Positions 1 to 16,751 of a stretch of DNA of 64,000 nucleotides are shown here, piece after piece. Each line of letters starts with the position of its first letter. Within the stretch, counting starts at the first letter, position 1. Origin of the DNA: Mollicutes bacterium (lineage in GTDB: Bacteria; Bacillota_I; Bacilli_A; RFN20; CAG-826); assembly GCA_022780025.1 (NCBI GenBank), contig JALEXS010000022.1:1256-65255 (forward strand). Direction: 5' to 3'. The notes under the pieces were generated by a model. That model had not been told where the DNA came from, ran no database searches, and saw nothing but the letters and a program-made list of their open reading frames with translations. The position numbers and the translations under genes are program-made.

Positions 1-1111
1 TCTTTAATATTTGAGCTTCATCCCAATCGAATTCATGATTACCAATACTCATCGCATCGCAACCAATTAAATTCAAGGCATCAGTCATAATTAAACCTTT
101 AGTATTATTAGATTCAATTCCGCCTTGCCACATATCTCCAGCTGATAAAAATAATGAATCAACTGATTTTTTATTTTGATAATAATCACCAATATAACTC
201 ATACCAGCTTGTTTTAAAGTAAGATCTTCTCTTCTAGTAAAAGCACCATGAGTATCGTTAACTGTATAAATATCAATTGTCCTAACGCTACCCTCATTAT
301 AAGGCTCAACAACTTCTATTTCTAAATTAGTATCAATATAACTATCTTTACTAATTTTAATATCTATTTTACCTAATTTATTTAATATATCATTATTATT
401 AATTGAGACTTTATAATCAGTAATTTCTTGATTAGTATTTAAATCAATTACCTTTAATCCAGTTAAATCTAATTTATCATTTAATTCATAATAAACTTTA
501 TTAGGTTTTCTTAATACCTTTAAATAATTAGTTTTAGAATCAATAACTTCGATATTATATGTTAATTCTTTATAATCTTTATAATTAATAACAACTTCAA
601 AGTTACCTAAATTTGTCAATTGATAACCATCACTTATGTTAACTGTAAAATTATTAATTTTATTATTTGATTCATCATATAAACTAATATCACTATAATA
701 AAATTTATCATTTAAATTATATTTAGTTTTAGTATTAGAATAATCTAAATGTAATAGTTTCTCATTATTAGAAATAACATTAATTTTATTATTAAATATA
801 TAAGGATTATAGTTTTCTTTTTGAATTGATAGTGTATAACTTCCTACATCTAAAAATGTATATGATTTATTATTAGTTACTATATCATTTAAATAAATAT
901 TATAGTTTTCTATTTCTTTTCTAGTTAATTTATCATAAACTTTTAAATCATCAAAATTAATAGATTCACCTACTAAATATTCATATTTAGAAATTTCACC
1001 TTGAACTAATAAATTACTTAAATTCTTTTCTTCTTTACAAGAAACTAAACTTAATAAAGCACTCGAAAAAAACATTGTTTTTACAATGTTTTTATTTAAA
1101 TTATAAATCAT
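1..1111 (-). CDS. Lipoprotein with 5'-nucleotidase/calcineurin-like metallophosphoesterase domain. The N-terminus starts at 1111 and the C-terminus runs off the window start (3' partial).
   Basis: Not in the ORF track because there is no in-window stop. Reading the minus strand from the ATG at 1111..1109 gives MIYNLNKNIVKTMFFSSALLSLVSC (signal peptide plus lipobox LVSC). Further downstream it gives ...DTHGAF...GNHEFDW, the metallophosphatase/5'-NT motif. The start overlaps the upstream stop as TAATG. Confidence 0.55.
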   Translation of the reverse strand, partial: MIYNLNKNIVKTMFFSSALLSLVSCKEEKNLSNLLVQGEISKYEYLVGESINFDDLKVYDKLTRKEIENYNIYLNDIVTNNKSYTFLDVGSYTLSIQKENYNPYIFNNKINVISNNEKLLHLDYSNTKTKYNLNDKFYYSDISLYDESNNKINNFTVNISDGYQLTNLGNFEVVINYKDYKELTYNIEVIDSKTNYLKVLRKPNKVYYELNDKLDLTGLKVIDLNTNQEITDYKVSINNNDILNKLGKIDIKISKDSYIDTNLEIEVVEPYNEGSVRTIDIYTVNDTHGAFTRREDLTLKQAGMSYIGDYYQNKKSVDSLFLSAGDMWQGGIESNNTKGLIMTDALNLIGCDAMSIGNHEFDWDEAQILK

Positions 1112-2616
1112 TAATAAATACTCCTAACAATTCCTGGATAATCAATAAATGGATTTCTATTACCTTGACATAAATATATTTTATCGTTTCTTAATTTTTC
1201 AAAATGATCTACAGGATCAAGTTCATTCCATTTCTTTAAATAACTTAATGCACCCATTGATAAATTACTACTTACTTCATCTAAAGACAATTCATTATAT
1301 CTAACATCCATATAAAATAATATTCTAGCTATATCTCCTCTAAAATCACCAATTTGATTAGCTTTATCGATATTTGGATAAAAATATTTATCTCCTTCAC
1401 CAAAAATACCATTACCTCTACTACTATTTAAAGATGAATTAATTGCTCTTAAATTATGTAAATCACTTAAATGATTCTTAGTAGAATTATTAACTTTACT
1501 TGTTGTTATTTGCATTTTTGATTGAGGCCAAACGTGTTCTCTATTCCATGAAGTACCTGAATCCCAAGTATTTACAATATTCATACCATTATAAATTCCA
1601 AATAAATAACCGACTTTTGCAGGGTTTTCATCTATAAATTGAAGATAATAACGAGCATTACCATAATTTTGGAAAGTCATATTAGCTATTAAATCATGTA
1701 AATTTTCTTTTAATTTAGTACTAGAAAAATCTATATCTTTATAATAAGTAGATACATCACTTAAAGGAGAATAAGGTACACTTAATCCATTAGGAATATT
1801 ATTTTCTTTAATAGATTTACGATCACTACTATAAAATTCATAATTCATTTCTTCTTTAATTAATAAATCTAAACTAATAGATTTTAAATTAATATTAGAT
1901 TCACTACTATTAGATATAAAACTCATTTTAAATTCATTAGATAATGAATTTAAACTAGAATCATAATATGTAATTAAATCATCTTCAATTACTTTAAAAG
2001 TCTTTTTATATTTATCAGAATTAATCTTTAAATCTAAATTAGTATTACCTTTAAAAGTTTTAATTTGATAATTATATACAAATAAATTCTCATCTAATTT
2101 AACATCTATATTTAATTGATTATCAAATATTAAATTAACACCTTTATTAGTGTTTGATGATGATTTAGTTAAACCATTATAATTAAATTTAACTTTATCT
2201 AAATACTCAGTTTCAGTTTTACTAGCATTTAATTCTTCATAAGTAAAATAATGAGTATAATTAATTATTTTATATCCAGTTATATCAATCTTTTCTATTT
2301 CTTTAAATTTACAATTTAAAGAAATATCCCTATTTAAATCAAAGACATAATTAACTTCATCACATACTAAATTATTCTCTTCATAGAATCCTAAAAATTC
2401 ATAACCATCAAAAGGAGAAGCTTCTAAAATAATAGTACTTCCCTTACTATACTCACCACTTTTAGTTCCAAATACTTCTCCACCTTCATTATTAGTAATA
2501 TTAAATTTAAATGTATTAGAAATATCATTTCTATCACAACTACTAACAATAAATAAAGAAGGAACTACACATAATATCCATCTTTTCATATCTTTAATTA
2601 TACCAAATATAGTCAT
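1111..2616 (-). CDS. Lipoprotein with a C-terminal endonuclease-I-like (EndA/Vvn family) extracellular nuclease domain.
   Basis: N-terminal signal plus lipobox (LFIVSSC). C-terminal motifs are REHVWPQS, NLRAINSSLNSSRGN, GDIARILFYM and GNRNPFIDYP, which resemble Pfam Endonuclease_1. It is tightly packed with the flanking nuclease genes. Confidence 0.55.
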   Translation of the reverse strand: MTIFGIIKDMKRWILCVVPSLFIVSSCDRNDISNTFKFNITNNEGGEVFGTKSGEYSKGSTIILEASPFDGYEFLGFYEENNLVCDEVNYVFDLNRDISLNCKFKEIEKIDITGYKIINYTHYFTYEELNASKTETEYLDKVKFNYNGLTKSSSNTNKGVNLIFDNQLNIDVKLDENLFVYNYQIKTFKGNTNLDLKINSDKYKKTFKVIEDDLITYYDSSLNSLSNEFKMSFISNSSESNINLKSISLDLLIKEEMNYEFYSSDRKSIKENNIPNGLSVPYSPLSDVSTYYKDIDFSSTKLKENLHDLIANMTFQNYGNARYYLQFIDENPAKVGYLFGIYNGMNIVNTWDSGTSWNREHVWPQSKMQITTSKVNNSTKNHLSDLHNLRAINSSLNSSRGNGIFGEGDKYFYPNIDKANQIGDFRGDIARILFYMDVRYNELSLDEVSSNLSMGALSYLKKWNELDPVDHFEKLRNDKIYLCQGNRNPFIDYPGIVRSIY

Positions 2617-2680
2617 GCATATAAAGAAAAGAATAGGTCTATAAAGACCTATTCTTATTATCTTATTTAAAATTTAAATT

Positions 2681-5524
2681 TTATTTTACGATATAACTAA
2701 CTTTCATAGAGACAAGTCTAGCTTGAGCGTTATTACTGAAAGTAATAGTTTTATATCCACTTAATCCTTCAACAATATAGCTAAGTCCAGCCTTATCAAA
2801 TGTAGAAGCAAGTGTAGTTTCACCACTCTTAGCAACTAAATCTACAACATACTTCTTTGAACTATAATCATCATAAGTGAATGATATAGATTGTAACTCA
2901 ACATTTTCTTTAGCAGTAACAATTAAATTATGGCCTTTATACATTCTAAGACTTTCACTTGTTGTTGCAGCAGGTGCATTTGATGTATTTGTTCCAGTTG
3001 AATGTTCAAAACCAATAACTCCATCACCGTCAAAGAAGGTAACAACTTTTCCATCAGCACTAGCCGTACCAGTTATTTTAGCAAATGAGTAAGTCTTTTC
3101 TAATAAACCAGCAGGAGTGTCGACTTTATTAACAGTTACTTTAACTGTAGCTGTTTTTGTTGGATCTTCTTTACTAGCAACAGTAATTGTAGTTTCGCCA
3201 GCTTTAACACCAGTAACAGTACCATCATCACTAACAGTAGCGATTTCAGTATTATTTGAGGTATAAGTTAATCCTTTTACAGTAGCATTATCTGGGGTAA
3301 CACTAGCATTAATTTTAACAGTCTTTTTTTCATCAACTGTAATTGAAGCATCAGCTGTAACACCAGTTACATGAACTTTTTCGCTTTCTGCTAATTTAGT
3401 AAGGAAATGAGAAACATAATTTGTATCACTAGTAGCATAAGATGTTTTACTAACACTGAAAGTTGTAAAAGTATTATATGTTCCAATGTAAACATCAACA
3501 GTATCAATAGTAGTTACTAAAGTTTTTAATGAAGAATCATATTTCCAAGTAAGTGTTGGTGTAGTAACAAGAGTAGCTTTATATGATGTGCCACCAGATT
3601 TATTTGTATAAGAAGCAGCTTCAATATAAGTTTTTGCTTCACCTTTAGTAAAAGAAACTTTACATGCATCTAATGTGCCTTCTAATGTAACATCAATAGC
3701 TTCAGCATCATTCTCTGTTGAACTTAAGAAGTTGCCAGAAATCTCGCCATTAAAATAAAGTGTTTTATTTACACTGGAGTTCTTTTGATCTAAACCAAAT
3801 TTATAAGTTTTGCCAATTTCAGGATCTGCTACTTTATATAATCCATCCATAGTAGTTTCAGTAGGTGGGGTAGGAGTTTCTCCGCCTTCAGCTTTTTTAA
3901 CTAATCTATTAAATGCAAAGTAGAATTGGACTCCTGATTTTTCATCATAGATATAAGGAACTACAAAGAATTCAACTGTATCACCATTAGCAAATAATTT
4001 ATTAATAATGTCTGTATTGAAATTCTTTGGATTTGTGAATTTAAGTGTTCCATTATCTTGTTTACTAAATGCAGTGAAATCGCTTGAAACACCATAAGAA
4101 TCAATAGTGTCAGTTCCATCTTCAGCTTTAATTGTTATATTACCATATTTATCATTAGTTTCAGCTCCTGAAACAACACCAGTAACTTTATATGCAACTT
4201 TTTGATCAGCTGTAGTTAAAGCTTTCATGTCACTAACTGTCTTAGTTTGAGCAGTAGCAAATTCATTATCACCAGCAGTAATAGTAACTTTTTTAGCTTC
4301 ACTAACTAAGTTATCAACTTTAGCAGTAACAGTAACTTCGCCAACTTCTAAACCATATAATTTATTGCCAACAATCTTAGCTTTTGTTTTATCACCATCA
4401 GCTAATGAATAAGTAACATTACCACCAGCTCCTTCAGGAGTTAATGTAGCACTTAATTCAATTGCTTCATATGTTTTAACAGTGCCAGTTCCTACATTTA
4501 ATGTAATACCTTCAGCTTTAATAGCAGCTTTAGTAACATCAACAGTAGTAGGTACTAAATTAAAGTAACCATTACCACTATTGAATCCTAAAATAGAACC
4601 AGTAACAGTAACTTCACTACCATTAACAATTTTACCAATTTGTTCTCTTAAAGTTTTTTCTGCTTTATAGCAGCTAATTAATTTAAATTCTTCTTTAGAA
4701 ACACCTTCGATTTCAAATTTATGTCCACCAACATATTTTAATTTCTTAGCAGTAACATATTCATTTCTAGTTGCAATACCTGTTGTAATTTCTGAATTAT
4801 TTTTATTTGCAGTAGTTCCAAATTTTACGAAATCTTCAGCACTATATTCTTTTGCTTTAGGTAATTCAATTTTAGCATTTATTTTTTCAACTTTTGGATC
4901 ACTAAATTGTAAAACACCATAATAATTAGTTAATTGTCCTTTAACACTAACTACATCACCAACATTAAAAGAAGAAATATCAGTATTTGCTTTTTTATAG
5001 ACATAACCATAACTTTCTCCATCATAAATCACCATGTTTTGATCTTTATCTGTAGAAACGACAACACCTTTAACAGCGTATTCATTAGTTGTTGTGCCTT
5101 TACTATTTTTACATTCACCATCACTAGCTTCTTGAATAGCAGCAGTTAATGAAACATAAGCACTATCATCTTCTTCAACAGTAATTGTTAATTCTTGAGA
5201 TTTAACACTTTTAAAAGTAGCAGTAAGTTTTGCACTACCTGCTTTTAAGCCTTTAACTTTCGAGCCAAGAACAACAGCAACAGTAGGATCACTACTTTCG
5301 ATAGTAAAACCTGTTGTGACATTAGCGTCATCAGCTTTTACTGTAATTTGTGTTTCTTCTCCAACTTTAATTGTTTCTTTACCAGCACTAATAGTAACCT
5401 TTTTGATAGATGGTGTAGGGTCTACTGGATTATTAACATCTCCACAAGAAACAAGAGTTCCACTAAGTGCACCTAAACTTAATAAAGCACTAATAGTGAG
5501 AATTGGTATAAATTTTCTTTTCAT
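2681..5524 (-). CDS. Large surface lipoprotein (~947 aa) with bacterial Ig-like (Big_2) repeats and an OB-fold-like segment.
   Basis: Start refined to the ATG at 5524 (MKRKFIPILTISALLSLGALSGTLVSCG). A strong RBS AGGAGGAAG lies just upstream, so the track's N-terminal extension is spurious. There are repeated Big_2-like blocks (e.g. KVTISAGKETIKVGEETQITV...LKAGSAKLTATF). A GVVVSTDKDQNMVIYDGESYGYVYKK...GDVVSVKGQLTNYYGVLQF segment resembles the OB folds of ExeM/NucH/YhcR-type nucleases. Confidence 0.6.
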   Translation of the reverse strand: MKRKFIPILTISALLSLGALSGTLVSCGDVNNPVDPTPSIKKVTISAGKETIKVGEETQITVKADDANVTTGFTIESSDPTVAVVLGSKVKGLKAGSAKLTATFKSVKSQELTITVEEDDSAYVSLTAAIQEASDGECKNSKGTTTNEYAVKGVVVSTDKDQNMVIYDGESYGYVYKKANTDISSFNVGDVVSVKGQLTNYYGVLQFSDPKVEKINAKIELPKAKEYSAEDFVKFGTTANKNNSEITTGIATRNEYVTAKKLKYVGGHKFEIEGVSKEEFKLISCYKAEKTLREQIGKIVNGSEVTVTGSILGFNSGNGYFNLVPTTVDVTKAAIKAEGITLNVGTGTVKTYEAIELSATLTPEGAGGNVTYSLADGDKTKAKIVGNKLYGLEVGEVTVTAKVDNLVSEAKKVTITAGDNEFATAQTKTVSDMKALTTADQKVAYKVTGVVSGAETNDKYGNITIKAEDGTDTIDSYGVSSDFTAFSKQDNGTLKFTNPKNFNTDIINKLFANGDTVEFFVVPYIYDEKSGVQFYFAFNRLVKKAEGGETPTPPTETTMDGLYKVADPEIGKTYKFGLDQKNSSVNKTLYFNGEISGNFLSSTENDAEAIDVTLEGTLDACKVSFTKGEAKTYIEAASYTNKSGGTSYKATLVTTPTLTWKYDSSLKTLVTTIDTVDVYIGTYNTFTTFSVSKTSYATSDTNYVSHFLTKLAESEKVHVTGVTADASITVDEKKTVKINASVTPDNATVKGLTYTSNNTEIATVSDDGTVTGVKAGETTITVASKEDPTKTATVKVTVNKVDTPAGLLEKTYSFAKITGTASADGKVVTFFDGDGVIGFEHSTGTNTSNAPAATTSESLRMYKGHNLIVTAKENVELQSISFTYDDYSSKKYVVDLVAKSGETTLASTFDKAGLSYIVEGLSGYKTITFSNNAQARLVSMKVSYIVK

Positions 5525-5572
5525 TTTCTTCCTCCTAAAAAACAATAATTTATCCATATTTATATTAACATA

Positions 5573-6046
5573 TTAAGAATTAGCTTTAATATGTAATTTG
5601 TAAGTGACAGTTTTAGTTTTATCTTCTAAATATGCTGTACCTTTTAAATTTACCATTTTATCTTCTTTTATTTCATCATATTTTGGAGCATATAAAACTG
5701 AGTTTGGACGACTTGATAATGTTGAAGTTTTAAATAAAGTTGGTTCTGAAACTTCCCATTCAAGTCCAATAAATTTACTAACACGTTCATCATTTTCTAA
5801 ACCAGAAACTTCAGTAAGATTCATAATGTAGAAATTCTTTTGTGATGCTCTGTCACTCCTTAATAAATATTCAATGGTTTCATCGCTAAAATTAATACCA
5901 CCATCAAAACTAGCGACTGTTCCTTTGAATACTTTTTCCAAATATTCTTCTGTAGTAGTAGTTTTTGGACCATTATTTTCAGTTTCTCCACATCCTGCTA
6001 ATAAGAATGATGAACAGAATAAAGCTAATACTAAACCTTTTTTCAT
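5573..6046 (-). CDS. Small lipoprotein of unknown function.
   Basis: MKKGLVLALFCSSFLLAGCGE has a signal peptide and lipobox. A GGAGG RBS overlaps the stop of the upstream nuclease gene. Confidence 0.55.
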   Translation of the reverse strand: MKKGLVLALFCSSFLLAGCGETENNGPKTTTTEEYLEKVFKGTVASFDGGINFSDETIEYLLRSDRASQKNFYIMNLTEVSGLENDERVSKFIGLEWEVSEPTLFKTSTLSSRPNSVLYAPKYDEIKEDKMVNLKGTAYLEDKTKTVTYKLHIKANS

Positions 6047-6048
6047 AA

Positions 6049-7563
6049 TTATTTAACCTCCGTAATGTAATTGTATTCTAAGTTGTTATTAAATAAACAA
6101 ACTTGATATTTTTCATAATATGGTTTTAAGTAACCTTTAACGATATAAGTTTTACCAACTTCAAATAAAGTTTCACCTGGATAAGGATAACAATTACCAT
6201 CAACTCTCATATTAATGTATAATCTACTACTTTCATCATTTAAATAAGAGTAAATAGTCATATTCTTATTTGCATCTTTTTTGTAATAGTAATCGCCACT
6301 TGATGTTCCTTCATTTTGATCATCATCACTACTTGCATTAACTGTTCTAATAGTAAGTCTAGCAGTAACTAATCGATCACTAAATTGAGCGACATCACTT
6401 AAAGTTTTGCAATCATCTAAAGAATTAAAATCAGATTCAACAAAAGGAGTAAATGTAGCAATCATTTCCTTTGCTTCATTAATTTCTTTAATATCAGCTT
6501 CTGTTAAAGATGGATCAGTAACATCTTGTGCAGCAATTCTTGAATAATTTGTGAATGCATATTTACCATAAGAATCAAATTTTAAATCACTTAATTGAAT
6601 ATTTTCTAAGAATTTAGTAGCTTTACAATAGAAACTGATGAAATCACTAGGTTTAACAACACTAGCTACACTTTTACCATATCCTGAGAATAAATAAGTA
6701 TAACCTAATTCACCGTTTTCATTAGGTACTACATCTCTAACATATAAACTATCTCCAGCGATACCAATAACACAGGCATCAATTTTGACCATTTTACCAC
6801 TACTATTTTCAGTAACACCGAGTTCTTCATAATTATCTATTAAATATTTAATAGTTGTTTTAATAACTGTATTACTATAATCATATCCAGGGTCTTTAGT
6901 ACCTTGAACTCTTAATTTCATTCTAGCAGCATAAGTATCAGCTTTTTGAAAATAATCTAAATAATCACAAACTTTTGATTTATCAAATAATAAATTTTTA
7001 GAATAGCCTTGTTCAACAATTTCTAAATTCAATAAACGGAAATCACTAGTTTTATCAAGTCTATACCAAACAAAACCTAAGAAACGACCATTAGTTTCAT
7101 TTCTTCCGAAAACGTCATAATCATTAATTAATAAAATATCTCCATTTGTTTCAGCTTCAGTTAAAATTTTAGCAACAAAAACAGAAGCTTTTTTACCCCA
7201 TGGTTCAATATTTGCAGTTGATTCAGGGGTATCAATACCTAAAAATCTTAATGGGAATCTAGTTTCACTAGCTGAACTATAATCATAAAATTTAGCAGTA
7301 TCACCATCAGTATTACTAGCTAAATGAACAAGTCCTATACCATCAGCAGTAAATACTTTTCCTTCATAATCTGCATTTAATTTACATGCATCTGTATAAG
7401 GAGTTTCAGGTAATAAATCATTTGGATCATTTAATTTTATTAATTCTCTAGTATTAGGATCTAAAGGATCAACTTTATTATTATTGTTATTATTACAAGA
7501 TGTTAATCCAATTGTAGTACCTAATAAGAATATACTTAATAATAATTTAAATTTATTTTTCAT
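6049..7563 (-). CDS. Membrane nuclease lipoprotein with a staphylococcal-nuclease-like (SNase/thermonuclease) domain and a C-terminal extension.
   Basis: Lipobox GLTSC. SNase motifs are TDGDTAKFY and RFLGIDTPES...PWGKKAS. This resembles mycoplasma MnuA / MG_186-type membrane nucleases. Confidence 0.7.
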   Translation of the reverse strand: MKNKFKLLLSIFLLGTTIGLTSCNNNNNNKVDPLDPNTRELIKLNDPNDLLPETPYTDACKLNADYEGKVFTADGIGLVHLASNTDGDTAKFYDYSSASETRFPLRFLGIDTPESTANIEPWGKKASVFVAKILTEAETNGDILLINDYDVFGRNETNGRFLGFVWYRLDKTSDFRLLNLEIVEQGYSKNLLFDKSKVCDYLDYFQKADTYAARMKLRVQGTKDPGYDYSNTVIKTTIKYLIDNYEELGVTENSSGKMVKIDACVIGIAGDSLYVRDVVPNENGELGYTYLFSGYGKSVASVVKPSDFISFYCKATKFLENIQLSDLKFDSYGKYAFTNYSRIAAQDVTDPSLTEADIKEINEAKEMIATFTPFVESDFNSLDDCKTLSDVAQFSDRLVTARLTIRTVNASSDDDQNEGTSSGDYYYKKDANKNMTIYSYLNDESSRLYINMRVDGNCYPYPGETLFEVGKTYIVKGYLKPYYEKYQVCLFNNNLEYNYITEVK

Positions 7564-7578
7564 AAATATATCGCCCTC

Positions 7579-9132
7579 CTAATTAGCAAAATCATTTAAA
7601 GTTGCATAAACTTTATTAATAACATCGGTAGGACTCATATTACCTTTAAATAATTGAGGAATGATAGTAGAAACTTCTTCTCTACATCTAGCACTACCAA
7701 CAAAAGGAGTGTCAACAAATTTTGTCCAATTTGTACCTTCTTTCATATATTCATTTGTATTAATTTTTGCTATTTGTTGCATTTGAACAGCATCTGGTAA
7801 TAATTTATTAGGATTTTTATTAATAAAATCTTGATAAACAGGACTATTTTGAGCATATTCACAACTTGGGAAATATCCAGTTGATAAAGAGAAATCAGCA
7901 TTAACATTCTTAGATAAATATTTAATTAATTGCCAAGAAGCTAAACGTTCTTTATCTGTACCTTTATCAAGCATAACTAAATTAGTACCTTGAGAAATAA
8001 CAAATTTCTTATCTACATCTTTATATAAAGTAGGTGCACATGCTGAAGTAAATTTATCTCCAGCAGGTAAAGCATTATCAGCTCCAGCAGTTGAACCTAT
8101 GTTCATAACTGTTTGAATCTTTTTAAATGGATTAGAATTATACTTAGCTTCACCATAAACTGATGGAATACCAATAATTCCTTCTTTATATAATCTTTGA
8201 ATATAAGTTAAAGCTTCTTTAACTTTATCACTATCAAAGACAATATGTCCTTTTCTATCTTGAGAAACAGTAGTATATTCACCACCCCATTGTCTACATA
8301 ATGTTATAAAGAAGTTAGCTTGAGAATCATATGAGAATGGTACAAAACGATATTCATTTAATGTATCATCATTAATATTAGTATTCTTTTTAAGATCTTT
8401 GAAATTTAAAATACATTTTTTATCTGGTGTATCTTCTTCTTTTTCATAAATCTTATTATCTTTACCAATTACTTTTCCATAAGCATTTTCCATGACTACT
8501 AATATCTTTTTACCAACAGTTTCAAGTTCATCCCAAGTAGAAGGAACTTTGATATCACTATCAATACTACTAGCCCAATCAAAGAAAGTTTTATTATAAA
8601 CCATGACTTCAGTAGATTTATTAAATGGAACACCTAAAGTATAACCAGTTCCATCTTCTTTAAATTCTACTAATTGATTTTCAGTCATATAGTCTTTATA
8701 AAAATCATTAATTGATAAACTGACATTTTCTTTTAAAGAATTTGTAGTTTCACTATCATGTTCAAAGAAACTATCAAGTCTTAAAATAATATCACTATTA
8801 ACATATTCTGCCATATGATCTGGATAAGCTAAAGCAACATTAGGATATTTTTTACTAGTAGCAGCACCAACAATAGCTTTTCTTAAATTATCATAACTGC
8901 CTTTTGATTCCATATTGACAGTTATTCCATATTCTTGTTCAAATTGATCAACCAATTCTGCTAAAGATGCTTCAATTGCAGCTCCAAAAGGATTCCAAAA
9001 AGTAATTGTTGCTCCTTTTGTATCAATTGTATAATCGCTTGGATAAGCATTATTTGTAGTTCCACCACAGCTCATAATAGTGGAAGATAATAAAACCGTA
9101 CCAAATAATACCAATAAATCTTTTTTCTTCAT
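7579..9132 (-). CDS. ABC transporter substrate-binding lipoprotein (extracellular solute-binding family 1, CUT1-like), paralog 1.
   Basis: Lipobox IMSCGG. It is a paralog of the next gene (shared blocks TFWNPFGA / EFWTSFGA, LGVPFNKSTEVMVYNKTF, FRVFSYDSQANFFI, ISQGTNL). The start is set to the ATG at 9132, because the track start at 9150 is a TTG. Confidence 0.6.
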   Translation of the reverse strand: MKKKDLLVLFGTVLLSSTIMSCGGTTNNAYPSDYTIDTKGATITFWNPFGAAIEASLAELVDQFEQEYGITVNMESKGSYDNLRKAIVGAATSKKYPNVALAYPDHMAEYVNSDIILRLDSFFEHDSETTNSLKENVSLSINDFYKDYMTENQLVEFKEDGTGYTLGVPFNKSTEVMVYNKTFFDWASSIDSDIKVPSTWDELETVGKKILVVMENAYGKVIGKDNKIYEKEEDTPDKKCILNFKDLKKNTNINDDTLNEYRFVPFSYDSQANFFITLCRQWGGEYTTVSQDRKGHIVFDSDKVKEALTYIQRLYKEGIIGIPSVYGEAKYNSNPFKKIQTVMNIGSTAGADNALPAGDKFTSACAPTLYKDVDKKFVISQGTNLVMLDKGTDKERLASWQLIKYLSKNVNADFSLSTGYFPSCEYAQNSPVYQDFINKNPNKLLPDAVQMQQIAKINTNEYMKEGTNWTKFVDTPFVGSARCREEVSTIIPQLFKGNMSPTDVINKVYATLNDFAN

Positions 9133-9136
9133 AAAT

Positions 9137-10765
9137 TTACTTCTTTTCAACGTAAGATGCTAAATTTGAATAAGCATTATTTAAAATTTCATCAATACTT
9201 AATTTGCCATCAATAACTTGAGGAATAATTGTTTCAGCTTCGGTTCTAACTAATGATGAGCCAACAAAAGCAGCATCAACGAATTTATTCCAATTTTCAG
9301 TTTCACTTAAATAAACATCAGCATTAAGATTAGCAGCAGCTCTTTTTGCTTTATCACTAGCACTTCCACCAGATTTATCTTTTAAGAATTTTTGATAAAT
9401 ACTACTATTCATACCAATTGTTGAACATGGGAAATAACCAGCACCATAAGCAAAAGCACCATTACCTTTTTGAGTTAAATATTTAATTAATTTCCAGCTA
9501 GCAACAATTTCTTTATCACTACCTTTATCTAAGATAGCTAAGTTAGTACCTTGAGAAATAACGTTTTTATTATCTAAATCTTTAACTGGAACTGTTGCAA
9601 CACCCATTTCATATCTAATATCATTTACATTTTTATGTGCACCAGCACTACTAGAAATTGAGAACAAAGTTTCTTCTTTCTTAAATGCATTTGTTGCATA
9701 ATTTTGAAGATTCCAAGTAGCAGGAACACCTAAAATTTTCTTATCTGATAATCTTTTTACCATTTTTAAAGCTTCTTTAGTAATATCGTTATTAAAATCG
9801 ATATAACCTTTTCTTGTAGTTTTATCTAAATGAGTATATTGACCACCATAATTTCTAATTAAAGAAATAAAGAAGTTAGCTTGAGAGTCATAAGAGAAAA
9901 CTCTAAATGGTTCAGCAGAACTAACTGATGATAAATCTAATACTGGATCTTTTTTAGTTGCTTCTTTACATTTAGTATCATCTTGATAAGCCTTACCATC
10001 ATTTCCTAAAACGTAACCTTTAGTAGGATTTTTATTACTATCATAATCTAATAAACCTTTTTTAGTTGTATCAAAAGTTCTAGTTACATTATCAATTAAT
10101 TTATAAATAGCTTCACCACAAGATTCGATTTCTTCATATGTTTGTGGAACTTTAATTTTACTATCTTTTGAATTTCCCCAATCAATAAATGTCTTATTAT
10201 AAACCATAACTTCAGTTGATTTATTAAATGGTAAACCTAATGTATATCCTGTTCCATCTGGTTTAAATTCAAGATTTAAGTTTTCATTCATATAATCTTT
10301 ATAAAAACTATCCATATCAATTGGATCAACTTCAGTAAAGTTTGGATAATTTTCATCTTCATCACGAGTTGAAGGTATTTCTTTATCGTGTTCAATTAAG
10401 AAATCAAGTCTTAATTGAATGTCAGAATTAATATATCCAGCGAAGTGATCAGGATAACCAATGCAAACATTTGGATATTTTTGACCAGAAGCACCTAAAG
10501 AAACAGCTTCTCTTAATCCTTCATAACCACCTTTACCAGTATGAGTTACTTTAATACCAGTTTCTTCTCTAAATTCATCTAAAACTGTTTCTAAAGCTGC
10601 AGTAACATCAGCTCCAAATGATGTCCAAAATTCAATTTCAACACCACGAGTATCAACTGTCATATCAACAGTATAATCAGTACCTACTCCGCTTTTACCA
10701 CCACAACTAGTTAATAATCCAGTTGTAGCAAATAAAGATAAAGCAATCAATTGTAATTTTTTCAT
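9137..10765 (-). CDS. ABC transporter substrate-binding lipoprotein (CUT1-like), paralog 2.
   Basis: MKKLQLIALSLFATTGLLTSCGG with an AGGAGA RBS. At 542 aa it is unusually long for this family. Confidence 0.6.
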   Translation of the reverse strand: MKKLQLIALSLFATTGLLTSCGGKSGVGTDYTVDMTVDTRGVEIEFWTSFGADVTAALETVLDEFREETGIKVTHTGKGGYEGLREAVSLGASGQKYPNVCIGYPDHFAGYINSDIQLRLDFLIEHDKEIPSTRDEDENYPNFTEVDPIDMDSFYKDYMNENLNLEFKPDGTGYTLGLPFNKSTEVMVYNKTFIDWGNSKDSKIKVPQTYEEIESCGEAIYKLIDNVTRTFDTTKKGLLDYDSNKNPTKGYVLGNDGKAYQDDTKCKEATKKDPVLDLSSVSSAEPFRVFSYDSQANFFISLIRNYGGQYTHLDKTTRKGYIDFNNDITKEALKMVKRLSDKKILGVPATWNLQNYATNAFKKEETLFSISSSAGAHKNVNDIRYEMGVATVPVKDLDNKNVISQGTNLAILDKGSDKEIVASWKLIKYLTQKGNGAFAYGAGYFPCSTIGMNSSIYQKFLKDKSGGSASDKAKRAAANLNADVYLSETENWNKFVDAAFVGSSLVRTEAETIIPQVIDGKLSIDEILNNAYSNLASYVEKK

Positions 10766-10784
10766 AAAATCTCCTATTTAATAA

Positions 10785-11741
10785 TTATCCTTTAATGCCG
10801 CTACGAGAAACTCCACTCATAATCTTCTTTCTGAAAATTAAGAAGAAAATAAATAATGGTACGGTAACAAGTAATGCAGCAGCCATCTTAGCTGTATCAT
10901 TACTTTCTCCAGTTAATGAGTTAGTAAACATATCCATAAGACCGTTACTAACAAGTTTCATAGAATTTCCAAAATATGGGTTAGTTCCACTAGCAATTAA
11001 GTTAGGCCAAACATAACTATTCCATGCACCCATCAAAGATAAGATAGCAATTGAAATAATTGTTGGTAAAGCAATTGGAATCATAACTTTCCATAAATAT
11101 GAGAAGGTTCCATAACCATCAACTTTACTAGCTAAATAAAGTTCATTAGGTATTTGTTGGAATGTTTGTCTTAAATAGAAAATATAGAAAACACTTACAC
11201 CATGAACAAATATTAATGCACTATATGTGTTTGCCATGTTCCAAGTTAATGCTGTTTGATAGTTTGTAATAATCATCATTTCACCAGGAATCATCATGGT
11301 AGCTAATAAAATTGAGAATAAGAAATCTTTTCCTTTAAAGTTAATTCTAGCAAAAGCAAATGATGCTAAAACTGTAGTGATTAAAGTAAAGATTGTAGAA
11401 AGAAGAGATACTACTAAAGTATTAAAGAAAAACCATCCAATATTTACCGGTTTTCCTCCTAATTTAAGGTTAAAAATAGCTTTAAAGTTATTCATTGATA
11501 AACCCATTGATTTAAAATCAAATAAGTTTAATTTGTTATAAAGTAATTCATTTTGATAAATATTTGCATCTTTAAATGAGTTAATGATCATAAAATAGAA
11601 AGGTATGATCATAAATAAGCCAAGAATTGTTAAAAAGCCATACACTAATACATAACTAATAATTTTCTTAGCTAAATAAATACGACGTTGTTTATCACTA
11701 GTAAAGTAAACTTCGTTTCTACTTGAAGCATTGCCTGCCAT
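10785..11741 (-). CDS. ABC transporter permease (MalG/UgpE-like, binding-protein-dependent inner membrane component).
   Basis: Multi-TM protein with an EAA-like loop region. It has an AGGAGG RBS and sits in operon position after the MalF-like permease. Confidence 0.7.
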   Translation of the reverse strand: MAGNASSRNEVYFTSDKQRRIYLAKKIISYVLVYGFLTILGLFMIIPFYFMIINSFKDANIYQNELLYNKLNLFDFKSMGLSMNNFKAIFNLKLGGKPVNIGWFFFNTLVVSLLSTIFTLITTVLASFAFARINFKGKDFLFSILLATMMIPGEMMIITNYQTALTWNMANTYSALIFVHGVSVFYIFYLRQTFQQIPNELYLASKVDGYGTFSYLWKVMIPIALPTIISIAILSLMGAWNSYVWPNLIASGTNPYFGNSMKLVSNGLMDMFTNSLTGESNDTAKMAAALLVTVPLFIFFLIFRKKIMSGVSRSGIKG

Positions 11742-11753
11742 TTAATTTACCTC

Positions 11754-12752
11754 CTAATAATGAACTCTTTTCTTGCTTACTAACATTTGAACACCAGTAA
11801 TAAGTAAGATGATTAATAATAATATAACTGCAGCAGCTGAAGCTTGCCCAATTTTATCGTTTTGATAGTAATAAATGTATCCGACAACGGTAATCCACAT
11901 TTTATGGTCACTTCCACCAAAGTTAGTAGCACCACCACCAACTAAAGAAATAATTTGTGAGTATGCTTTAAACGCACCAATAAATGAAGTAACAGTAATA
12001 TATAAAATTTGAGGTGATAATAACGGGACTGTTATTCTTCTAAAGATTGTAAATTTAGAAGATCCATCAATTCTAGCAGCATCATAATATTGTTTATCAA
12101 TGGTAGCTAAACCACTTGAGAAAACTAAGATTTTAAATGCTAAACCATTCCAAATTGAATAAACAGTTAAAACAAAGAACATTGTCCATTTATTATTCAT
12201 CCAACTAACTGGATTCCCGCCAAACCATCCAGCGATTGTATTAATTAATCCACCTGCACCAGATGAGAACATCATTGAGAATACAACACCTAAAGCGATA
12301 GTATTTGTAACATAAGGTAAGAAAAATACTGTTTGGAAGAATGCTTTTAAAGGCTTTATAGAATTTAAAGCAACAGCGATAAGTAAACCAATTAAAATAG
12401 TTAAAGGTACTTGAACTATAACTAACATAATTGTATTAAATAACGCATCTTTAAATCCGGTATCCTTTAAAACGTTTATATAGTTATTGAAATTAAAATA
12501 CATCGTATTGATACGTGGATTATTCATTGCAGCAAAAAAATTACTTAATGCAAAACTACTTCCACTTTTACCAACCCATGTAAAATTTTCAATAAATGAT
12601 ATACAAATTGTATTTAAGATTGGATAGATCATGAAAATTATAAGGAAGAATAAAGCAGGTATAAGCGCAATCCAAGCTTTACACCATTCAGGCATATACC
12701 ATTTTCTTTTTCTAACGTATAATGTTTGATCTAATATATTTGAATTTTCCAT
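11754..12752 (-). CDS. ABC transporter permease (MalF/UgpA-like).
   Basis: Multi-TM protein with a conserved YDAARIDG..RRITVPLL EAA motif. Confidence 0.75.
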   Translation of the reverse strand: MENSNILDQTLYVRKRKWYMPEWCKAWIALIPALFFLIIFMIYPILNTICISFIENFTWVGKSGSSFALSNFFAAMNNPRINTMYFNFNNYINVLKDTGFKDALFNTIMLVIVQVPLTILIGLLIAVALNSIKPLKAFFQTVFFLPYVTNTIALGVVFSMMFSSGAGGLINTIAGWFGGNPVSWMNNKWTMFFVLTVYSIWNGLAFKILVFSSGLATIDKQYYDAARIDGSSKFTIFRRITVPLLSPQILYITVTSFIGAFKAYSQIISLVGGGATNFGGSDHKMWITVVGYIYYYQNDKIGQASAAAVILLLIILLITGVQMLVSKKRVHY

Positions 12753-12770
12753 AAAATAACCAATTATATA

Positions 12771-14267
12771 TTATTTAACTCTAGTGCCATCTTCATTAAA
12801 GACATAATATTTCTTTAAAGAGAATTCAACACTTTCTTTTCCTACGATATTTGCTCTTTCTTCACTTGGAATAATAATCTTAAGATGGGATTTATCTTGT
12901 CCATCAACTTTACCGATAAGAGAAATATCTCTACCAATATGTTCAACCATATCAATATCAACTTTAATATCACCTTTTTTAGCTAATTTAAAGCTTTCTG
13001 GTCTAACACCAATAAATACATTTCTATCAATCTTAGATACTGGTCTTTGTTTTGTTACATCGTGATAAACTAATTTATTTGTTTCATCAACTAATTTTTC
13101 TCTTAATTTAACGATTTCTGATTTAACTTTTTCTAATTCATCGCCTTCAAGATTATTAAGAGTTTCTTCTTTTTCTTTAATTAAAGTTTCAAGATGTTCA
13201 ACTTTTGAATTATCAACTGGTTCATTAACAACATAATCTTCAAGTCCATTATAAACTTCTTTATATATTGGATCTTCATCGATTGCTCTACCACTTACAT
13301 AAAGTTTTCCATCTTTAATTTCGCCATCAAAAATATTAATAGCTGGGGAACCTAAGAATTTAGCGACAAACATATTAGTTGGTTCATCATAAACGTTTTG
13401 TGGTTCGCCAATTTGTTGAATAACGCCTTCTTTCATAACAACGATGAAGTCGCTGATAGACATTGCTTCTTCTTGATCGTGAGTAACGAAAATTGTAGTA
13501 ATTCCAGTTTCTTTTTGAATACGTTTAATTTCTTCACGTGTTTGAAGTCTAAGTCTAGCGTCTAAGTTACTTAAAGGTTCATCAAGTAATAAAACTTGAG
13601 GTTTTTTAGCTAAAGCTCTAGCAATAGCAACACGTTGTTGTTGACCACCAGATAATTCTTTTGGTTTTCTTTCTAAATATTTTTCGATATCAACTAATTT
13701 AGCCATTTTTAAAACGATTTCGTTTTTCTCAGCCTTAGTTAATTTTCTTGCTTTTATAATAGGTACTTCGGTTGTCTTAAAATATTCTAAATCTTCTTTC
13801 TTTTGTTTTAATTCTTCTAATAAAGAAGTGACATCAGTTCCCTTAGATTCTAAAGAAGAGATTTTCTTTTCAAGTTTTGCAACTTCTTTTGTAATAATTT
13901 TGATTTTTTCTTCATCAATACCAATTCTATCTTGATATCTGATTTTTGCATTATCTAATGGGAATTGAATGTTTTGTCTTACAGATAAATGTGGGTAAAG
14001 AGCATAGTTTTGGAAAACTAAACCAATACCTCTATTTTCTGGTGGAACATTAGTAACATCTTCTTCACCAAAATAGATTTTTCCATCTGTTGGTTTATGT
14101 AAACCAGCAATCATATAAAGAGTTGTTGATTTACCACATCCAGAAGGACCAAGTAATCCAGCAAGTTTTCCATCAGGTATAGTAAATGTCATATCATTTA
14201 CGGCTATTGTTTCCTGTTTTTTCTTGCTATAGAATTTTTTTGTTAGATTTTGAATTTTGACTTCCAT
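12771..14267 (-). CDS. ABC transporter ATP-binding protein (MalK/UgpC family) with a large internal coiled-coil insertion.
   Basis: Walker A GPSGCGKST, Q-loop, signature LSGGQQQRVAIARA, Walker B LLLDEP and H-loop VTHDQ are present. About 90 aa of insert (KIRYQDRIGIDEEKIKIITKEVAKLEKK...) sits between the Q-loop and the signature motif. Confidence 0.85.
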   Translation of the reverse strand: MEVKIQNLTKKFYSKKKQETIAVNDMTFTIPDGKLAGLLGPSGCGKSTTLYMIAGLHKPTDGKIYFGEEDVTNVPPENRGIGLVFQNYALYPHLSVRQNIQFPLDNAKIRYQDRIGIDEEKIKIITKEVAKLEKKISSLESKGTDVTSLLEELKQKKEDLEYFKTTEVPIIKARKLTKAEKNEIVLKMAKLVDIEKYLERKPKELSGGQQQRVAIARALAKKPQVLLLDEPLSNLDARLRLQTREEIKRIQKETGITTIFVTHDQEEAMSISDFIVVMKEGVIQQIGEPQNVYDEPTNMFVAKFLGSPAINIFDGEIKDGKLYVSGRAIDEDPIYKEVYNGLEDYVVNEPVDNSKVEHLETLIKEKEETLNNLEGDELEKVKSEIVKLREKLVDETNKLVYHDVTKQRPVSKIDRNVFIGVRPESFKLAKKGDIKVDIDMVEHIGRDISLIGKVDGQDKSHLKIIIPSEERANIVGKESVEFSLKKYYVFNEDGTRVK

Positions 14268-14332
14268 AGTATTATTTTCTCCTAGTATAATATAATAACA
14301 TTTTTGTCTAACCGGTTGTTAGCACAAAAATT

Positions 14333-15478
14333 TCATTGACAATTGTTTTCACTTTCTCCATGAATGCTTTGCATATCTTTTTCATAATTAATTTGATCTT
14401 CTTTGGTTTCAAACCATATTGATTCTTTATTATCAATACAAAGAGTGAGACCACAAAAATCAAATAATGATCGATGCATATTCGTAAAAATCATCATTAA
14501 GAAAGAGACAAATATTAATAGTATTAATAAAATTAATGCTATTAACGGATAGAATATAAATATTATAAACAAAAATATGACAGGAATAAACATCCTAAAT
14601 ATATTTTTGAATTTAGATGACCTATATCCATATTCATTAACTAAACAAAGAGATAACATTTTTTTACCAAAAGTTTCTCCATTTCTAAATATTAAAATAG
14701 GTAATATATAAATTATAAAATAAGTTACTGGTAGTCCTATATATATAGGATAAATAGCATAAAACTTACTATATTCATTACGTAAAGATTGATATTTATT
14801 AGTAGCATATAAATCATTACAAGCTACAGCATAAACACAATTAGATTCCATACTACAGAAGTAATTTAAAATGTCATTATAAGTCTTTTCGGGTAGTAAA
14901 CCATCTATATATAATTCCTTTTTTATAATAGCAAATTTATCATATTCTTTTTCACCTAATTCATTAATATTATATTCAAAAAACTTAGTACCATTTTCTT
15001 TTACAAATTTATATCTATTTATATTTTCATCATCAAATAAATTACGTTCATCATCTTGTCCTAATAAATATACATTGAACCAATAAATATCTTTTTCCTT
15101 GCTATTCTCATCTATTTTTTTCAAATTTTGATTATAAAAAGTATAAATAGCATCTCGATAATCAATATAATTTTTACTATCAATTAAAGTAAATTCATTA
15201 TTTTCATATGTAAATAACGCTGATTCTTTCATGATGATACTGAACTCATTATTAATATTATTAACATAACTTGTTCTGACAAATATTTCTCGAGTTCCGA
15301 AGAATATAGATAAGAAAACAAATACACCTAATAAAAAGTCAATCAAACCAGCTAAAGCTCTTTTCCAAACAGGTGCTAAAGCAATGTATCCTTTTTTAAA
15401 ATTTTTATCTATCATTGAATAATTAAATGATAAATCATTATTCACTTTTTTCATTTTGCCAAATAACCTCTCTATCAT
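14333..15478 (-). CDS. RDD-family membrane protein with a large insert between TM1 and the C-terminal TM bundle (paralog B).
   Basis: N-terminal RDD-like KRALAGLIDFLLGVF, a C-terminal ETFGKKMLSLCLVNEYG motif and several TM helices. It is a paralog of the upstream gene, and the 5' end overlaps it. Confidence 0.45.
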   Translation of the reverse strand: MIERLFGKMKKVNNDLSFNYSMIDKNFKKGYIALAPVWKRALAGLIDFLLGVFVFLSIFFGTREIFVRTSYVNNINNEFSIIMKESALFTYENNEFTLIDSKNYIDYRDAIYTFYNQNLKKIDENSKEKDIYWFNVYLLGQDDERNLFDDENINRYKFVKENGTKFFEYNINELGEKEYDKFAIIKKELYIDGLLPEKTYNDILNYFCSMESNCVYAVACNDLYATNKYQSLRNEYSKFYAIYPIYIGLPVTYFIIYILPILIFRNGETFGKKMLSLCLVNEYGYRSSKFKNIFRMFIPVIFLFIIFIFYPLIALILLILLIFVSFLMMIFTNMHRSLFDFCGLTLCIDNKESIWFETKEDQINYEKDMQSIHGESENNCQ

Positions 15479-16511
15479 CTATATAACAAGAATTAGATAT
15501 AAATTCAAATACACCTCTTTTATTTATAGAAAATAAAACCATGCTTAAATTAATAATAAATAATAAGCCAGCTATAATACCAAATAGATATAAAGAATTT
15601 AAAAAGTAATTAAATAATATAATTACAGTTAATGGAACAAAGCGTAATAAATAGGATAATCTAGATAATTCTTTACCACTTTTATTAACTAATCCAATTT
15701 TAAATATTAATCTTCCAAAAGTTTTTCTTTCAGTAAAAATTAGACCTGGAATAATATAAATTAATAATACTGGAACTATAGTAAAAACTAATGATTCAAT
15801 TTTTTCGGCTGACATATTTTTTTTAACAATTTCATGATAAAAAGACTCATTTGAGAGATCTATGGTCGCTTTTGAATATAAATTTTCAACAAAATTTTTA
15901 ATTTTTTCTTTATGAATGTCAATAATTGTTCCATCATCTTTAAAATATTTAGGATTTTTATTAGCAATTTTATTCAAATTAGTTTCATCATAAATAAAAT
16001 AATCATTTCTTTCAGTTTTAACATTATATAAATTGTATTTATCATCCAAATTTAAAACATTAACATTAAACCAATAATATCGATAATCTTTCATTTCATC
16101 ACCAATTTTTATTTCATAATTAATAGGTGAAGGATTCTCTACTTTTTTATAATCAGTATCATTTATAAAGTCATTATATTCTCCTACTTTCCAATTTAGA
16201 TAATAATATTCTAAATGTTTTAAAGTATTATCAATTGAATTTTCTGTATCTTCTATTCTAACAAATTTATTATCTTTAAAAGTTCCTAAAGCAGAACTAT
16301 ATACATATTGATTTAGTGATTGTAAATTTTGATTATATGGGGTAATCATATTAACAAATCCATTACCACCAAATACTAATAAAATAATTAAAATCATAAT
16401 AAAAAATATAAAATCAACTGTAGCAGATGCAAATCTTATACCATTTTTAGGTTGTATTACATCTATTACTTTTTCATTCTTACTACGTCCGAATAACTTC
16501 TTATTAATCAT
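15438..16511 (-). CDS. RDD-family membrane protein (paralog A).
   Basis: ATVDFIFFIMILIILLV and KTFGRLIFKIGLVNKSG are RDD-like motifs. It has the same architecture as 14333..15478. Confidence 0.45.
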   Translation of the reverse strand: MINKKLFGRSKNEKVIDVIQPKNGIRFASATVDFIFFIMILIILLVFGGNGFVNMITPYNQNLQSLNQYVYSSALGTFKDNKFVRIEDTENSIDNTLKHLEYYYLNWKVGEYNDFINDTDYKKVENPSPINYEIKIGDEMKDYRYYWFNVNVLNLDDKYNLYNVKTERNDYFIYDETNLNKIANKNPKYFKDDGTIIDIHKEKIKNFVENLYSKATIDLSNESFYHEIVKKNMSAEKIESLVFTIVPVLLIYIIPGLIFTERKTFGRLIFKIGLVNKSGKELSRLSYLLRFVPLTVIILFNYFLNSLYLFGIIAGLLFIINLSMVLFSINKRGVFEFISNSCYIDDREVIWQNEKSE

Positions 16512-16751
16512 AATTCAATTTAATGTCTAGACTGATATTATACTATATATAAATGCTAATTAAAAATATAAAAATACATTGTACAAATGTTTTATTCTAC
16601 ACAAACATTTTTAATAAGAATTTCCAATTTTTAATAATATTAATTTTATTATTTTAAATTTAAATTTATTAAATATAAAATATAAAAAATTAACAAAATA
16701 TTTGAGTTTTGCATTGTTTTTACTAAATTTAAGCCGTTTTTCGAAATTAAA

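Follow-up and report, generated by a model that had tools for sequence, protein, structure and literature searches.

The 64-kb window examined here (the whole stretch of DNA analysed, 64,000 nucleotides) carries at positions 1-14267 ten closely packed genes for surface nucleases, a 5'-nucleotidase and an ATP-binding cassette (ABC) importer, which are the subject of this report. The NCBI record containing the exact protein of the staphylococcal-nuclease-type gene (SNase) is labelled 'MAG: Mollicutes bacterium' (MAG, metagenome-assembled genome). The G+C content of the window is 27%, and its GC skew is negative throughout. Genetic codes 4 and 11 yield identical long open reading frames (ORFs), and TGA is therefore read as a stop; the Mycoplasma code 4 was ruled out, since table 11 keeps the ORFs intact and TGA ends genes. 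All ten genes are located on the minus strand and are read from 14267 to 1, in the order ATPase, permease 1, permease 2, two solute-binding proteins (SBP1 and SBP2), SNase, a 157-amino-acid (aa) lipoprotein, a 947-aa lipoprotein, Endonuclease I (EndoI) and 5'-nucleotidase (5'-NT). From the ATPase onward, the intergenic gaps are 18, 12, 19, 4, 15, 2, 48, and 91 nucleotides (nt), and the start of the 5'-NT gene overlaps the EndoI stop by 1 nt. A lipobox was found in all seven proteins other than the ATPase and the permeases.

A preliminary description made from the sequence had listed ten consecutive, co-oriented and tightly spaced genes. The ORF calls bear this out, with transcription running in the reverse of the listed order. 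Hidden Markov model searches supported the nuclease, nucleotidase and transporter domains (Endonuclease_1, SNase, Metallophos/5_nucleotid_C, two SBP_bac_8, two BPD_transp_1, a UgpC-like ATPase, and Big_2), and the motifs GNHEFD, DGDT, and LGIDTPE are all present. Thus, a set of surface nucleases and a nucleotidase is physically coupled to a CUT1-type ABC importer, as had been described. The features are collected in Table 1.

Table 1. Genes and sequence features of the array and of the region directly upstream
Feature	Coordinates	Strand	Evidence or remark
RDD-family membrane protein paralog 2, 357 aa	15438..16511	-	Pfam RDD 7.5e-8
RDD-family membrane protein paralog 1, 381 aa	14333..15478	-	Pfam RDD 3.1e-11
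ABC ATPase, UgpC/MalK type, 498 aa	12771..14267	-	ABC_tran 3e-36; NCBIfam UgpC 5.6e-103; AGGAG ribosome-binding site
Permease 1, UgpA/MalF-like, 332 aa	11754..12752	-	BPD_transp_1 3.2e-18; UgpA 3.2e-19
Permease 2, UgpE/MalG-like, 318 aa	10785..11741	-	BPD_transp_1 9.4e-16; UgpE 1.1e-21
Solute-binding lipoprotein SBP1, 542 aa	9137..10765	-	SBP_bac_8 4.1e-20
Solute-binding lipoprotein SBP2, 517 aa from ATG 9132	7579..9132	-	SBP_bac_8 2.8e-33
SNase lipoprotein, 504 aa	6049..7563	-	SNase 2.6e-8; NCBIfam thermonuclease 6e-10
Small lipoprotein, 157 aa	5573..6046	-	hhalign to cluster-0 lipoprotein N-terminus
Giant lipoprotein, 947 aa, start 5524	2681..5524	-	Big_2 1.1e-15; weak tRNA_anti-codon
Intrinsic-terminator-like hairpin, 12-bp stem and T-run	2629..2656	-	between the giant-lipoprotein and EndoI genes
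Promoter-like site, extended -10 TGGTATAAT	2597..2625	-	ends 7 nt before ATG 2589
Endonuclease-I lipoprotein, 492 aa from probable ATG 2589 (ORF open to 2616)	1111..2589	-	Endonuclease_1 (PF04231) 1.5e-27
5'-nucleotidase lipoprotein, N-terminal 370 of 729 aa, rest cut by the window edge	1..1111	-	Metallophos; 5_nucleotid_C

Conserved core and probable transcription boundary

An alignment of SNase-lipoprotein homologs was scanned against one genome per GTDB species, which gave 260 confirmed relatives, and the best 80 loci were fetched and compared by tblastn with all ten window proteins. These 80 loci come from uncultured Bacilli, 'Mollicutes', Erysipelotrichales, Acholeplasmatales, Anaeroplasmataceae, and Izemoplasmatales of gut, rumen, and sediment; no Mycoplasma is among them. 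The core order ATPase-permease-permease-SBP(1-2)-SNase was collinear in 66 of the 66 loci with enough upstream sequence and was kept down to 26-40% SNase identity. Because the core order recurs in every evaluable locus, the array is not a product of chance. Two SBP genes are present in 34 loci and one in 44. The complete ten-gene form occurs only in one locus, L002 from a Hadza gut MAG (81-98% identity), while another, L003, has all genes but EndoI. The pairing of nuclease and importer is ancient and invariant, and it comes with OB lipoproteins and often with RDD proteins.

The importer combines a MalK/UgpC-type ATPase, UgpAE/MalFG-type permeases and cluster-D (SBP_bac_8/1) binding proteins, which places it in the CUT1 group (TC 3.A.1.1). 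The ATPase matched NCBIfam UgpC in three stretches and MalK with 2.6e-82, with a weak OB_MalK match, and carries one ABC_tran domain. Compared with UgpC, it has two charged, coiled-coil-like insertions of ~70 aa, one after residue ~100 (helical subdomain) and one in the C-terminal regulatory region. In the related loci, the tblastn matches of the ATPase break at the same two points, indicating that the inserts are variable. A tandem-ABC/Bmp nucleoside importer, a candidate prompted by the 498-aa length of the ATPase, was ruled out by the single ABC domain with insertions and by SBPs of the SBP_bac_8 type.

The conserved unit reaches upstream to the two RDD genes. The gene of RDD paralog 1 ends 65 nt 5' of the ATPase start with no terminator in between. 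In 45 of 65 evaluable loci, the ATPase has a same-strand RDD homolog that ends less than 600-700 nt upstream of it, a count that an iterated profile left the same. Two RDD copies occur in 24 loci. The 20 RDD-free loci are L046 and the most distant clade (L059-L081). The RDD proteins are possibly an accessory membrane subunit or component of the importer. In both paralogs, ~190 aa are inserted after the first transmembrane segment and before the later ones, and piecewise Pfam scans of the RDD loops gave sub-threshold matches only. In L059-L081, conserved ORFs of ~198 aa and ~104 aa lie ~0.5-1.2 kb upstream of the ATPase, often after an ORF of 600-1050 aa.

Within the array, no terminator-like site was seen from 5573 to 14267, and an Rfam scan of 1-17000 found no riboswitch and no other RNA element. 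Since the gaps are short and no such site falls in this interval, we infer cotranscription of the nuclease and transporter genes. The hairpin that follows the giant-lipoprotein gene is identical in L002, and L003, a 60-70%-identical relative, has an equally strong hairpin of unrelated sequence at the same position. Because this position-conserved hairpin is followed by an extended -10 promoter-like site, the EndoI and 5'-NT genes probably form a separate transcription unit. The array, which had been proposed to be a single operon-like unit, thus probably splits in two. From the promoter-like site, transcription of the EndoI/5'-NT unit may start leaderless; the site was singled out by position alone, and the promoter scan of this AT-rich DNA was uninformative (113 sites against 123 expected).

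The EndoI lipoprotein has an N-terminal InlB B-repeat-like domain (Flg_new_2 3.4e-7) in addition to its nuclease domain. It aligned to the Vvn nuclease 1OUO (9e-6), with EHVWP and DLHNL...N..R.N kept, which include the catalytic His and the metal-binding Asn region. The 5'-NT is available at its full length of 729 aa on a matching 14.8-kb contig (L001; Metallophos 2.5e-8, 5_nucleotid_C 1e-6), shows NCBIfam matches of the Nt5e/UshA type, and contains the DxH, GD, and GNHE motifs. For EndoI as for 5'-NT, only 7-8 of the 80 loci have a homolog no more than 10 kb away from the core. The EndoI/5'-NT unit is therefore a lineage-specific add-on, and the full cascade down to nucleosides is not conserved logic of the system. 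In L002 and L003, the 5'-NT gene is followed by a 641-653-aa lipoprotein of the cluster-0 family described below, and therefore the system continues beyond the left edge of the window. The extent of 1-14267 given in the preliminary description stands for the ten genes, but the conserved unit adds the upstream RDD genes (14333-16511) and, in the closest relatives, this downstream OB lipoprotein.

SNase, OB and Ig lipoproteins

The SNase lipoprotein (lipobox LTSC) has its SNase domain at ~aa 60-215 and two C-terminal OB folds at ~aa 250-335 and ~aa 400-490. Its family profile aligned to staphylococcal nuclease (E=5e-8) with DGDT (D21), R35, D40-T41-P-E43, and R87 in register, whereas a phmmer search of PDB with the SNase domain alone found no match. 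Piecewise Pfam scanning of the C-terminus gave sub-threshold matches only. At the position of D40, a Ca2+ ligand, most family members have Asn (consensus GINTPE) and the window protein has GIDTPE; this difference may bear on metal preference, the M. agalactiae nuclease MAG_5040 being Mg2+-dependent.

In nearly every locus, an extra gene follows SNase by 10-35 nt. Clustering defined a family (cluster 0) of ~370-aa lipoproteins with no Pfam match, found after SNase in 63 loci. The N-terminal third of the giant lipoprotein (residues ~12-336) aligned with the full cluster-0 protein (hhalign P 98.5%, E=3e-15), and the 157-aa lipoprotein, for which Pfam and NCBIfam gave no match and piecewise Pfam scans sub-threshold matches only, aligned with cluster-0 residues 1-127 (P 97.2%, E=3.5e-11). 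Standalone lipoproteins of 140-160 aa follow SNase in 7 other loci, and the locus of Ca. Izemoplasma acidinucleici (L080) has a 157-aa aBig_2 protein.

In the giant lipoprotein, two or more Big_2 Ig-like stretches reach significance, and it has one or more OB modules (one at aa ~130-228) besides other beta-rich regions. Profile searches detected no catalytic domain in it, and piecewise Pfam scans of its remaining segments gave sub-threshold matches only. Its description as an Ig-like/OB-fold protein was supported directly for the Ig-like part, but the OB fold was below threshold in the direct Pfam search (E=0.0012). With residues 118-345 as the query, a word-indexed homolog search returned one near-identical fragment, while an exhaustive HMMER search returned 90 relatives among 1.84 billion representatives. 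PF01336 was significant in 28 of the 45 distant relatives scanned (best E=2.6e-22), and the OB fold is therefore supported transitively; a nuclease domain was found in 0 of these 45. DUF4131, which we take to be the ComEC N-terminal domain, was matched by 6 of them. The iterated profile of the OB module matched both OB folds of the window SNase (1.2e-8 and 8.6e-6), 60 of 60 SNase-family members tested, cluster-0 proteins (down to 1e-14), the 653-aa protein of L002 twice, large lipoproteins of other loci, and three modules in the 1049-aa protein of L080.

The most fitting role for the giant lipoprotein is that of an Ig/OB scaffold that binds nucleic acid and is not catalytic, and the small one is probably its Ig-like companion, the 157-aa equivalent in L080 being an aBig_2 protein. 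The preliminary description left both without an assigned role. By homology, they are probably derived from the conserved OB lipoprotein that follows SNase, with a probable role as DNA-binding scaffolds.

Two further protein types were observed near SNase in the related loci. In 18 related loci (for example L011 12752-13867) and not in the window, a lipoprotein of ~370 aa and metallo-beta-lactamase fold (Lactamase_B 3.5e-11, HxHxDH) is encoded downstream of SNase; it may be an extra surface nuclease or phosphodiesterase. In 30 loci (for example L004 3726-4163), a ~145-aa protein without a signal peptide or Pfam match is encoded a few genes 3' of SNase, usually before a pyruvate:ferredoxin oxidoreductase gene.

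Relation to described systems

Nuclease-linked ABC transporters have been known in mycoplasmas since about 2007-2013, to our knowledge without an established substrate. In M. agalactiae, the genes of the SNase MAG_5040, the SBP-like P80 and a sugar-type ABC transporter are cotranscribed, and import of nucleotide precursors was proposed (PMC3585158). In M. bovis, the homologous set MBOVPG45_0307-0311 is regarded as a putative nucleotide transporter operon. MslA, a P81/P80 homolog, binds DNA in both single- and double-stranded form and was proposed to pass oligonucleotides to the nuclease (PMC4045577). Reviews repeat the import model without a demonstrated substrate (PMC9740415, PMC12115388). 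The Mycoplasma operons (M. agalactiae MAG_5030-5070, M. bovis MBOVPG45_0307-0311, M. gallisepticum mslA/MGA_0676, and the MG_186 region of M. genitalium) share with the window a surface SNase lipoprotein, an SBP-like lipoprotein and an adjacent sugar/Ugp-type ABC transporter (PMC3585158, PMC4045577, PMC9740415). The Mycoplasma order SBP-SNase-ATPase-permease-permease is a circular permutation of ATPase-permease-permease-SBP-SBP-SNase in the window (PMC3585158). The Mycoplasma SNases have 250-390 aa and no OB folds reported for them, whereas the window SNase has 504 aa and two OB folds. According to the published descriptions, the Mycoplasma operons also lack RDD proteins, OB/Ig scaffold lipoproteins, EndoI, and 5'-NT, all four of which are present in the window.

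A nucleic-acid-degrading locus with a transporter has also been reported in Izemoplasmatales, where the 'DNA-degradation loci' of Wasmund et al. 2021 (PMC8289736) combine nucleases and phosphohydrolases with ABC transporters and with a nucleic-acid-binding/lamin-tail protein of 1,049 aa. The corresponding locus L080 has a collinear core, with 49% identity to the window in the ATPase, 42-46% in the permeases, 31% in the SBP, and 42% in SNase. Its SNase is followed by the 157-aa Ig-type protein and by the published 1,049-aa protein (S1/aBig_2/LTD), which has the OB module in common with the window proteins. In both loci, several extracellular nucleases and one or more phosphohydrolases accompany the transporter. 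However, the window differs in having two SBPs, the upstream RDD genes and the EndoI/5'-NT unit, and its giant lipoprotein is a non-catalytic Big_2/OB protein without the lamin-tail domain. Genes for a Pst-type phosphate transporter, a feature of the Izemoplasma locus, were found neither at 1-24516 nor among the other window ORFs scanned. The host lineage of the window is related to gut MAGs such as the Hadza gut metagenome of L002, while Izemoplasma is from marine sediment.

In Bacillus subtilis, YhcR combines OB folds, SNase and 5'-nucleotidase in one LPXTG wall-anchored protein. For the breakdown of extracellular nucleic acid, the window has these three domain types too. The earlier view that the YhcR domains are here spread over separate lipoproteins was correct for 5'-NT, which is a separate lipoprotein in another unit, but not for SNase, which itself carries two OB folds, so that OB and SNase are fused in both systems. 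The window further differs from YhcR in having its OB folds C-terminal to SNase, in its lipid anchor, and in its linkage to an importer.

The view of this array as an expanded version of the Mollicutes SNase-ABC arrangement agrees with the published operons (PMC3585158, PMC4045577) and with the conservation of the core across wall-less or reduced Bacilli. The window locus adds an expanded member to a kind of system known from mycoplasmas and from marine Izemoplasma. New in this analysis are the core collinearity, the RDD partners, the OB folds and partner lipoproteins, the terminator-like boundary, and the likeness of the SBPs to a dinucleotide binder.

Binding proteins, imported ligand and proposed mechanism

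SBP1 and SBP2 are 42% identical, and the best PDB sequence match of both is the 7C0F-7C1B series (SBP2 1.7e-16, SBP1 3.2e-13). The family profile matched the 7C0x dinucleotide-binding protein with 1.4e-25 and E. coli UgpB with 6e-16; UgpB structures were the second-best matches of the SBPs, and the 7C0F-type protein is their closest relative in both sequence and fold. The 7C0x entries are identified as a dinucleotide-binding protein (U3G) by their PDB entry titles, and we take the series to belong to the Thermus ABC transporter study of Chandravanshi et al. (FEBS J 2021, PMID 33599038). No oligosaccharide binder was within thresholds in the family-profile or SBP1 PDB searches, and the SBP2 search gave one weak match of this kind, the arabino-oligosaccharide binder 6rjy (E=7e-5). 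The SBPs matched SBP_bac_8/1 only, and no match to the Bmp/PnrA family was found.

The Thermus protein is ~20% identical to the window SBPs, which are lipoproteins and ~110 aa longer, with an insert at ~217-265 and an extended C-terminus. They keep PFNKS and QGTNL as well as most of the mutagenised ligand-site residues, at seven of eight positions. Eight ligand-site residues were taken from the names of the 7C0x mutant entries and mapped by HMMER alignment onto 66 family members. Six positions are invariant in the family, namely those of 7C0F Y56 (Y80 in SBP2), F79 (Y103), N81 (D105), S127 (S173, within an identical PFNKS), T240 (S347), and Q274 (Q381, within QGTNL). The position of Y224 (W/F/Y326) is aromatic in 65 of 66 members, and that of Y246 (N353) is mostly N, or K; across the eight positions, contacts deciding for a base and those deciding for a phosphodiester are not separable. 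These similarities suggest that the SBP pocket is of the dinucleotide/UgpB, phosphodiester-binding kind and not a Bmp-type nucleoside receptor. Mainly because of this resemblance, we favour phosphorylated nuclease products over nucleosides as the substrate of the importer.

Taken together, the locus is fairly likely to encode a two-part cell-surface apparatus that feeds on extracellular nucleic acid and imports the phosphorylated products. The first part would be the ancient conserved core, consisting of the RDD protein(s), the ATPase, two permeases, one or two SBPs, SNase, and the OB/Ig lipoproteins. In it, DNA or RNA may be held at the membrane by the OB lipoproteins (that of 947 aa and the small one) together with SNase's two OB folds, and SNase would cut it there to small phosphorylated products. 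Enzymes of the SNase family release 3'-phosphomono- and dinucleotides. The two paralogous SBPs would capture such products and hand them over to the CUT1-type importer, so that nucleotides, dinucleotides or short oligonucleotides may enter with their phosphate kept. The second part would be the separately transcribed, lineage-specific unit. Endonuclease I products are 5'-phosphate fragments, and the EndoI lipoprotein would supply fragments of this kind; the ecto-5'-nucleotidase would then free phosphate and nucleosides, the latter to be taken up by other carriers. More tentatively, the core might be dedicated to the import of phosphorylated di- or oligonucleotides or 3'-nucleotides in the 260 relatives, all wall-less or reduced Bacilli, and by extension in mycoplasmas, with RDD as a new membrane subunit and the SBP paralogs splitting the substrate range.

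Several points weigh against this interpretation. The SNase product chemistry is assumed from the enzyme family, the transcription units are predicted, and the role of RDD is guilt by association only, the distant clade L059-L081 having no RDD. The substrate is a matter of deduction from relatives, as members of the SBP family have no measured ligand. The ligand of the Thermus SBP was reportedly an adventitious, co-purified dinucleotide, and the FEBS J 2021 study is said to have found that the Thermus protein also binds glycerophosphocholine, which makes its own physiological substrate uncertain. In addition, the homologous Izemoplasma transporter has been read as an importer of nucleosides or nucleobases (Wasmund et al., PMC8289736).

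That last reading leads to the first alternative, in which one ten-gene operon encodes a linear cascade, with EndoI and SNase producing nucleotides, 5'-NT producing nucleosides, and the ABC transporter importing nucleosides (or deoxyribose/ribose), as the preliminary description had proposed. Every enzyme needed is present and co-oriented, the Izemoplasma SBP is regarded as a probable nucleoside/nucleobase transporter component, and no other nucleoside transporter was seen among the ORFs scanned in the 64-kb window. However, most core loci have no 5'-NT or EndoI nearby, and in the window both sit behind the conserved terminator-like hairpin. The SBPs are SBP_bac_8/UgpB-like and not Bmp/PnrA, the ATPase has a single ABC domain, and the nearest solved relatives of the SBPs bind phosphodiester ligands. 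Moreover, the mycoplasma nucleoside importer with experimental support uses the P48 lipoprotein, which belongs to a different SBP family and was thus ruled out as the counterpart of the window SBPs (PMC12892991). Overall, a cascade ending in imported nucleosides seems unlikely.

Still less probable is an ordinary Ugp-type importer of glycerol-3-phosphate or glycerophosphodiesters (or of oligosaccharides), linked to the nucleases by a shared phosphate- or carbon-scavenging regulon with no hand-off of substrate. The best NCBIfam matches of the transporter parts are UgpA, UgpE, UgpC, and UgpB, but all of these scores are far under the equivalog cut-offs. The rank of the UgpB structures among the SBP matches and the invariant D105 in place of N81 of the dinucleotide binder point the same way, and the M. 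pneumoniae counterpart is presumably annotated as ugpACE. However, the linkage to SNase in 66 of 66 loci over deep divergence, together with the OB lipoproteins, is hard to reconcile with import of lipid headgroups, and Mycoplasma MslA/P80 binds DNA (PMC4045577). Finally, a main role of the nucleases in defence, niche modification (DNA traps, biofilm matrix) or natural transformation, with an incidental importer, is very improbable: Mycoplasma SNase homologs do degrade neutrophil extracellular traps and are cytotoxic (PMC9740415, PMC12115388), DUF4131 is matched by some OB-module relatives and lipoproteins of the metallo-beta-lactamase fold occur in related loci, but the host organisms are mostly free-living, gut or rumen commensals or sediment bacteria, the 2-19-nt spacing and invariant order with the importer argue for metabolic coupling, and no competence machinery was seen in the window ORFs scanned.

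Other genes of the window were also noted. A PI-PLC X-domain protein (19008-20042, minus strand) and a HAD phosphatase (18238-19005, minus strand) are encoded just upstream of the RDD/Fe-ADH region, and a GlpA-like FAD dehydrogenase cluster is located at 34486-39545; these genes hint at phospholipid-headgroup or glycerol-phosphate metabolism nearby and bear on the Ugp-type alternative. A second ABC importer (59262-63927, minus strand) comprises a 506-aa PotA-like ATPase with TOBE_2, two permeases and a 507-aa SBP_bac_8 protein of lipoprotein size, its ATPase and SBP being enlarged as in the first system. Rnf complex genes (23932-28255, minus strand) code for RnfC, RnfD, and an Rnf-Nqr subunit, with ApbE and a NusG_II-domain protein; they are unusual for a genome labelled 'Mollicutes' and fit an anaerobic, less reduced Bacilli lineage. 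A fluoride riboswitch (52209-52280, minus strand; Rfam 44.7 bits) lies directly upstream of a Na_H_Exchanger-family gene (50947-52182, minus strand), which is not of the crcB/eriC type.

Wall-less and genome-reduced Bacilli are in general unable to make nucleotides and depend on their surroundings for them. Some mycoplasmas have long been observed to take up nucleoside monophosphates, which an importer of phosphorylated fragments, if confirmed, would explain. With such a dedicated importer, a bacterial ABC route that takes up nucleic-acid fragments without loss of their phosphate would be defined for the first time. The kind of system is already known and the novelty is modest; what makes the finding valuable are the conserved RDD and OB partners and a testable substrate hypothesis, as the likeness of the SBPs to a dinucleotide binder turns the vague 'nucleotide precursor import' into a specific binding hypothesis. 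The locus suggests how gut, rumen, and sediment members of these lineages may recycle extracellular DNA and RNA, phosphorus included.

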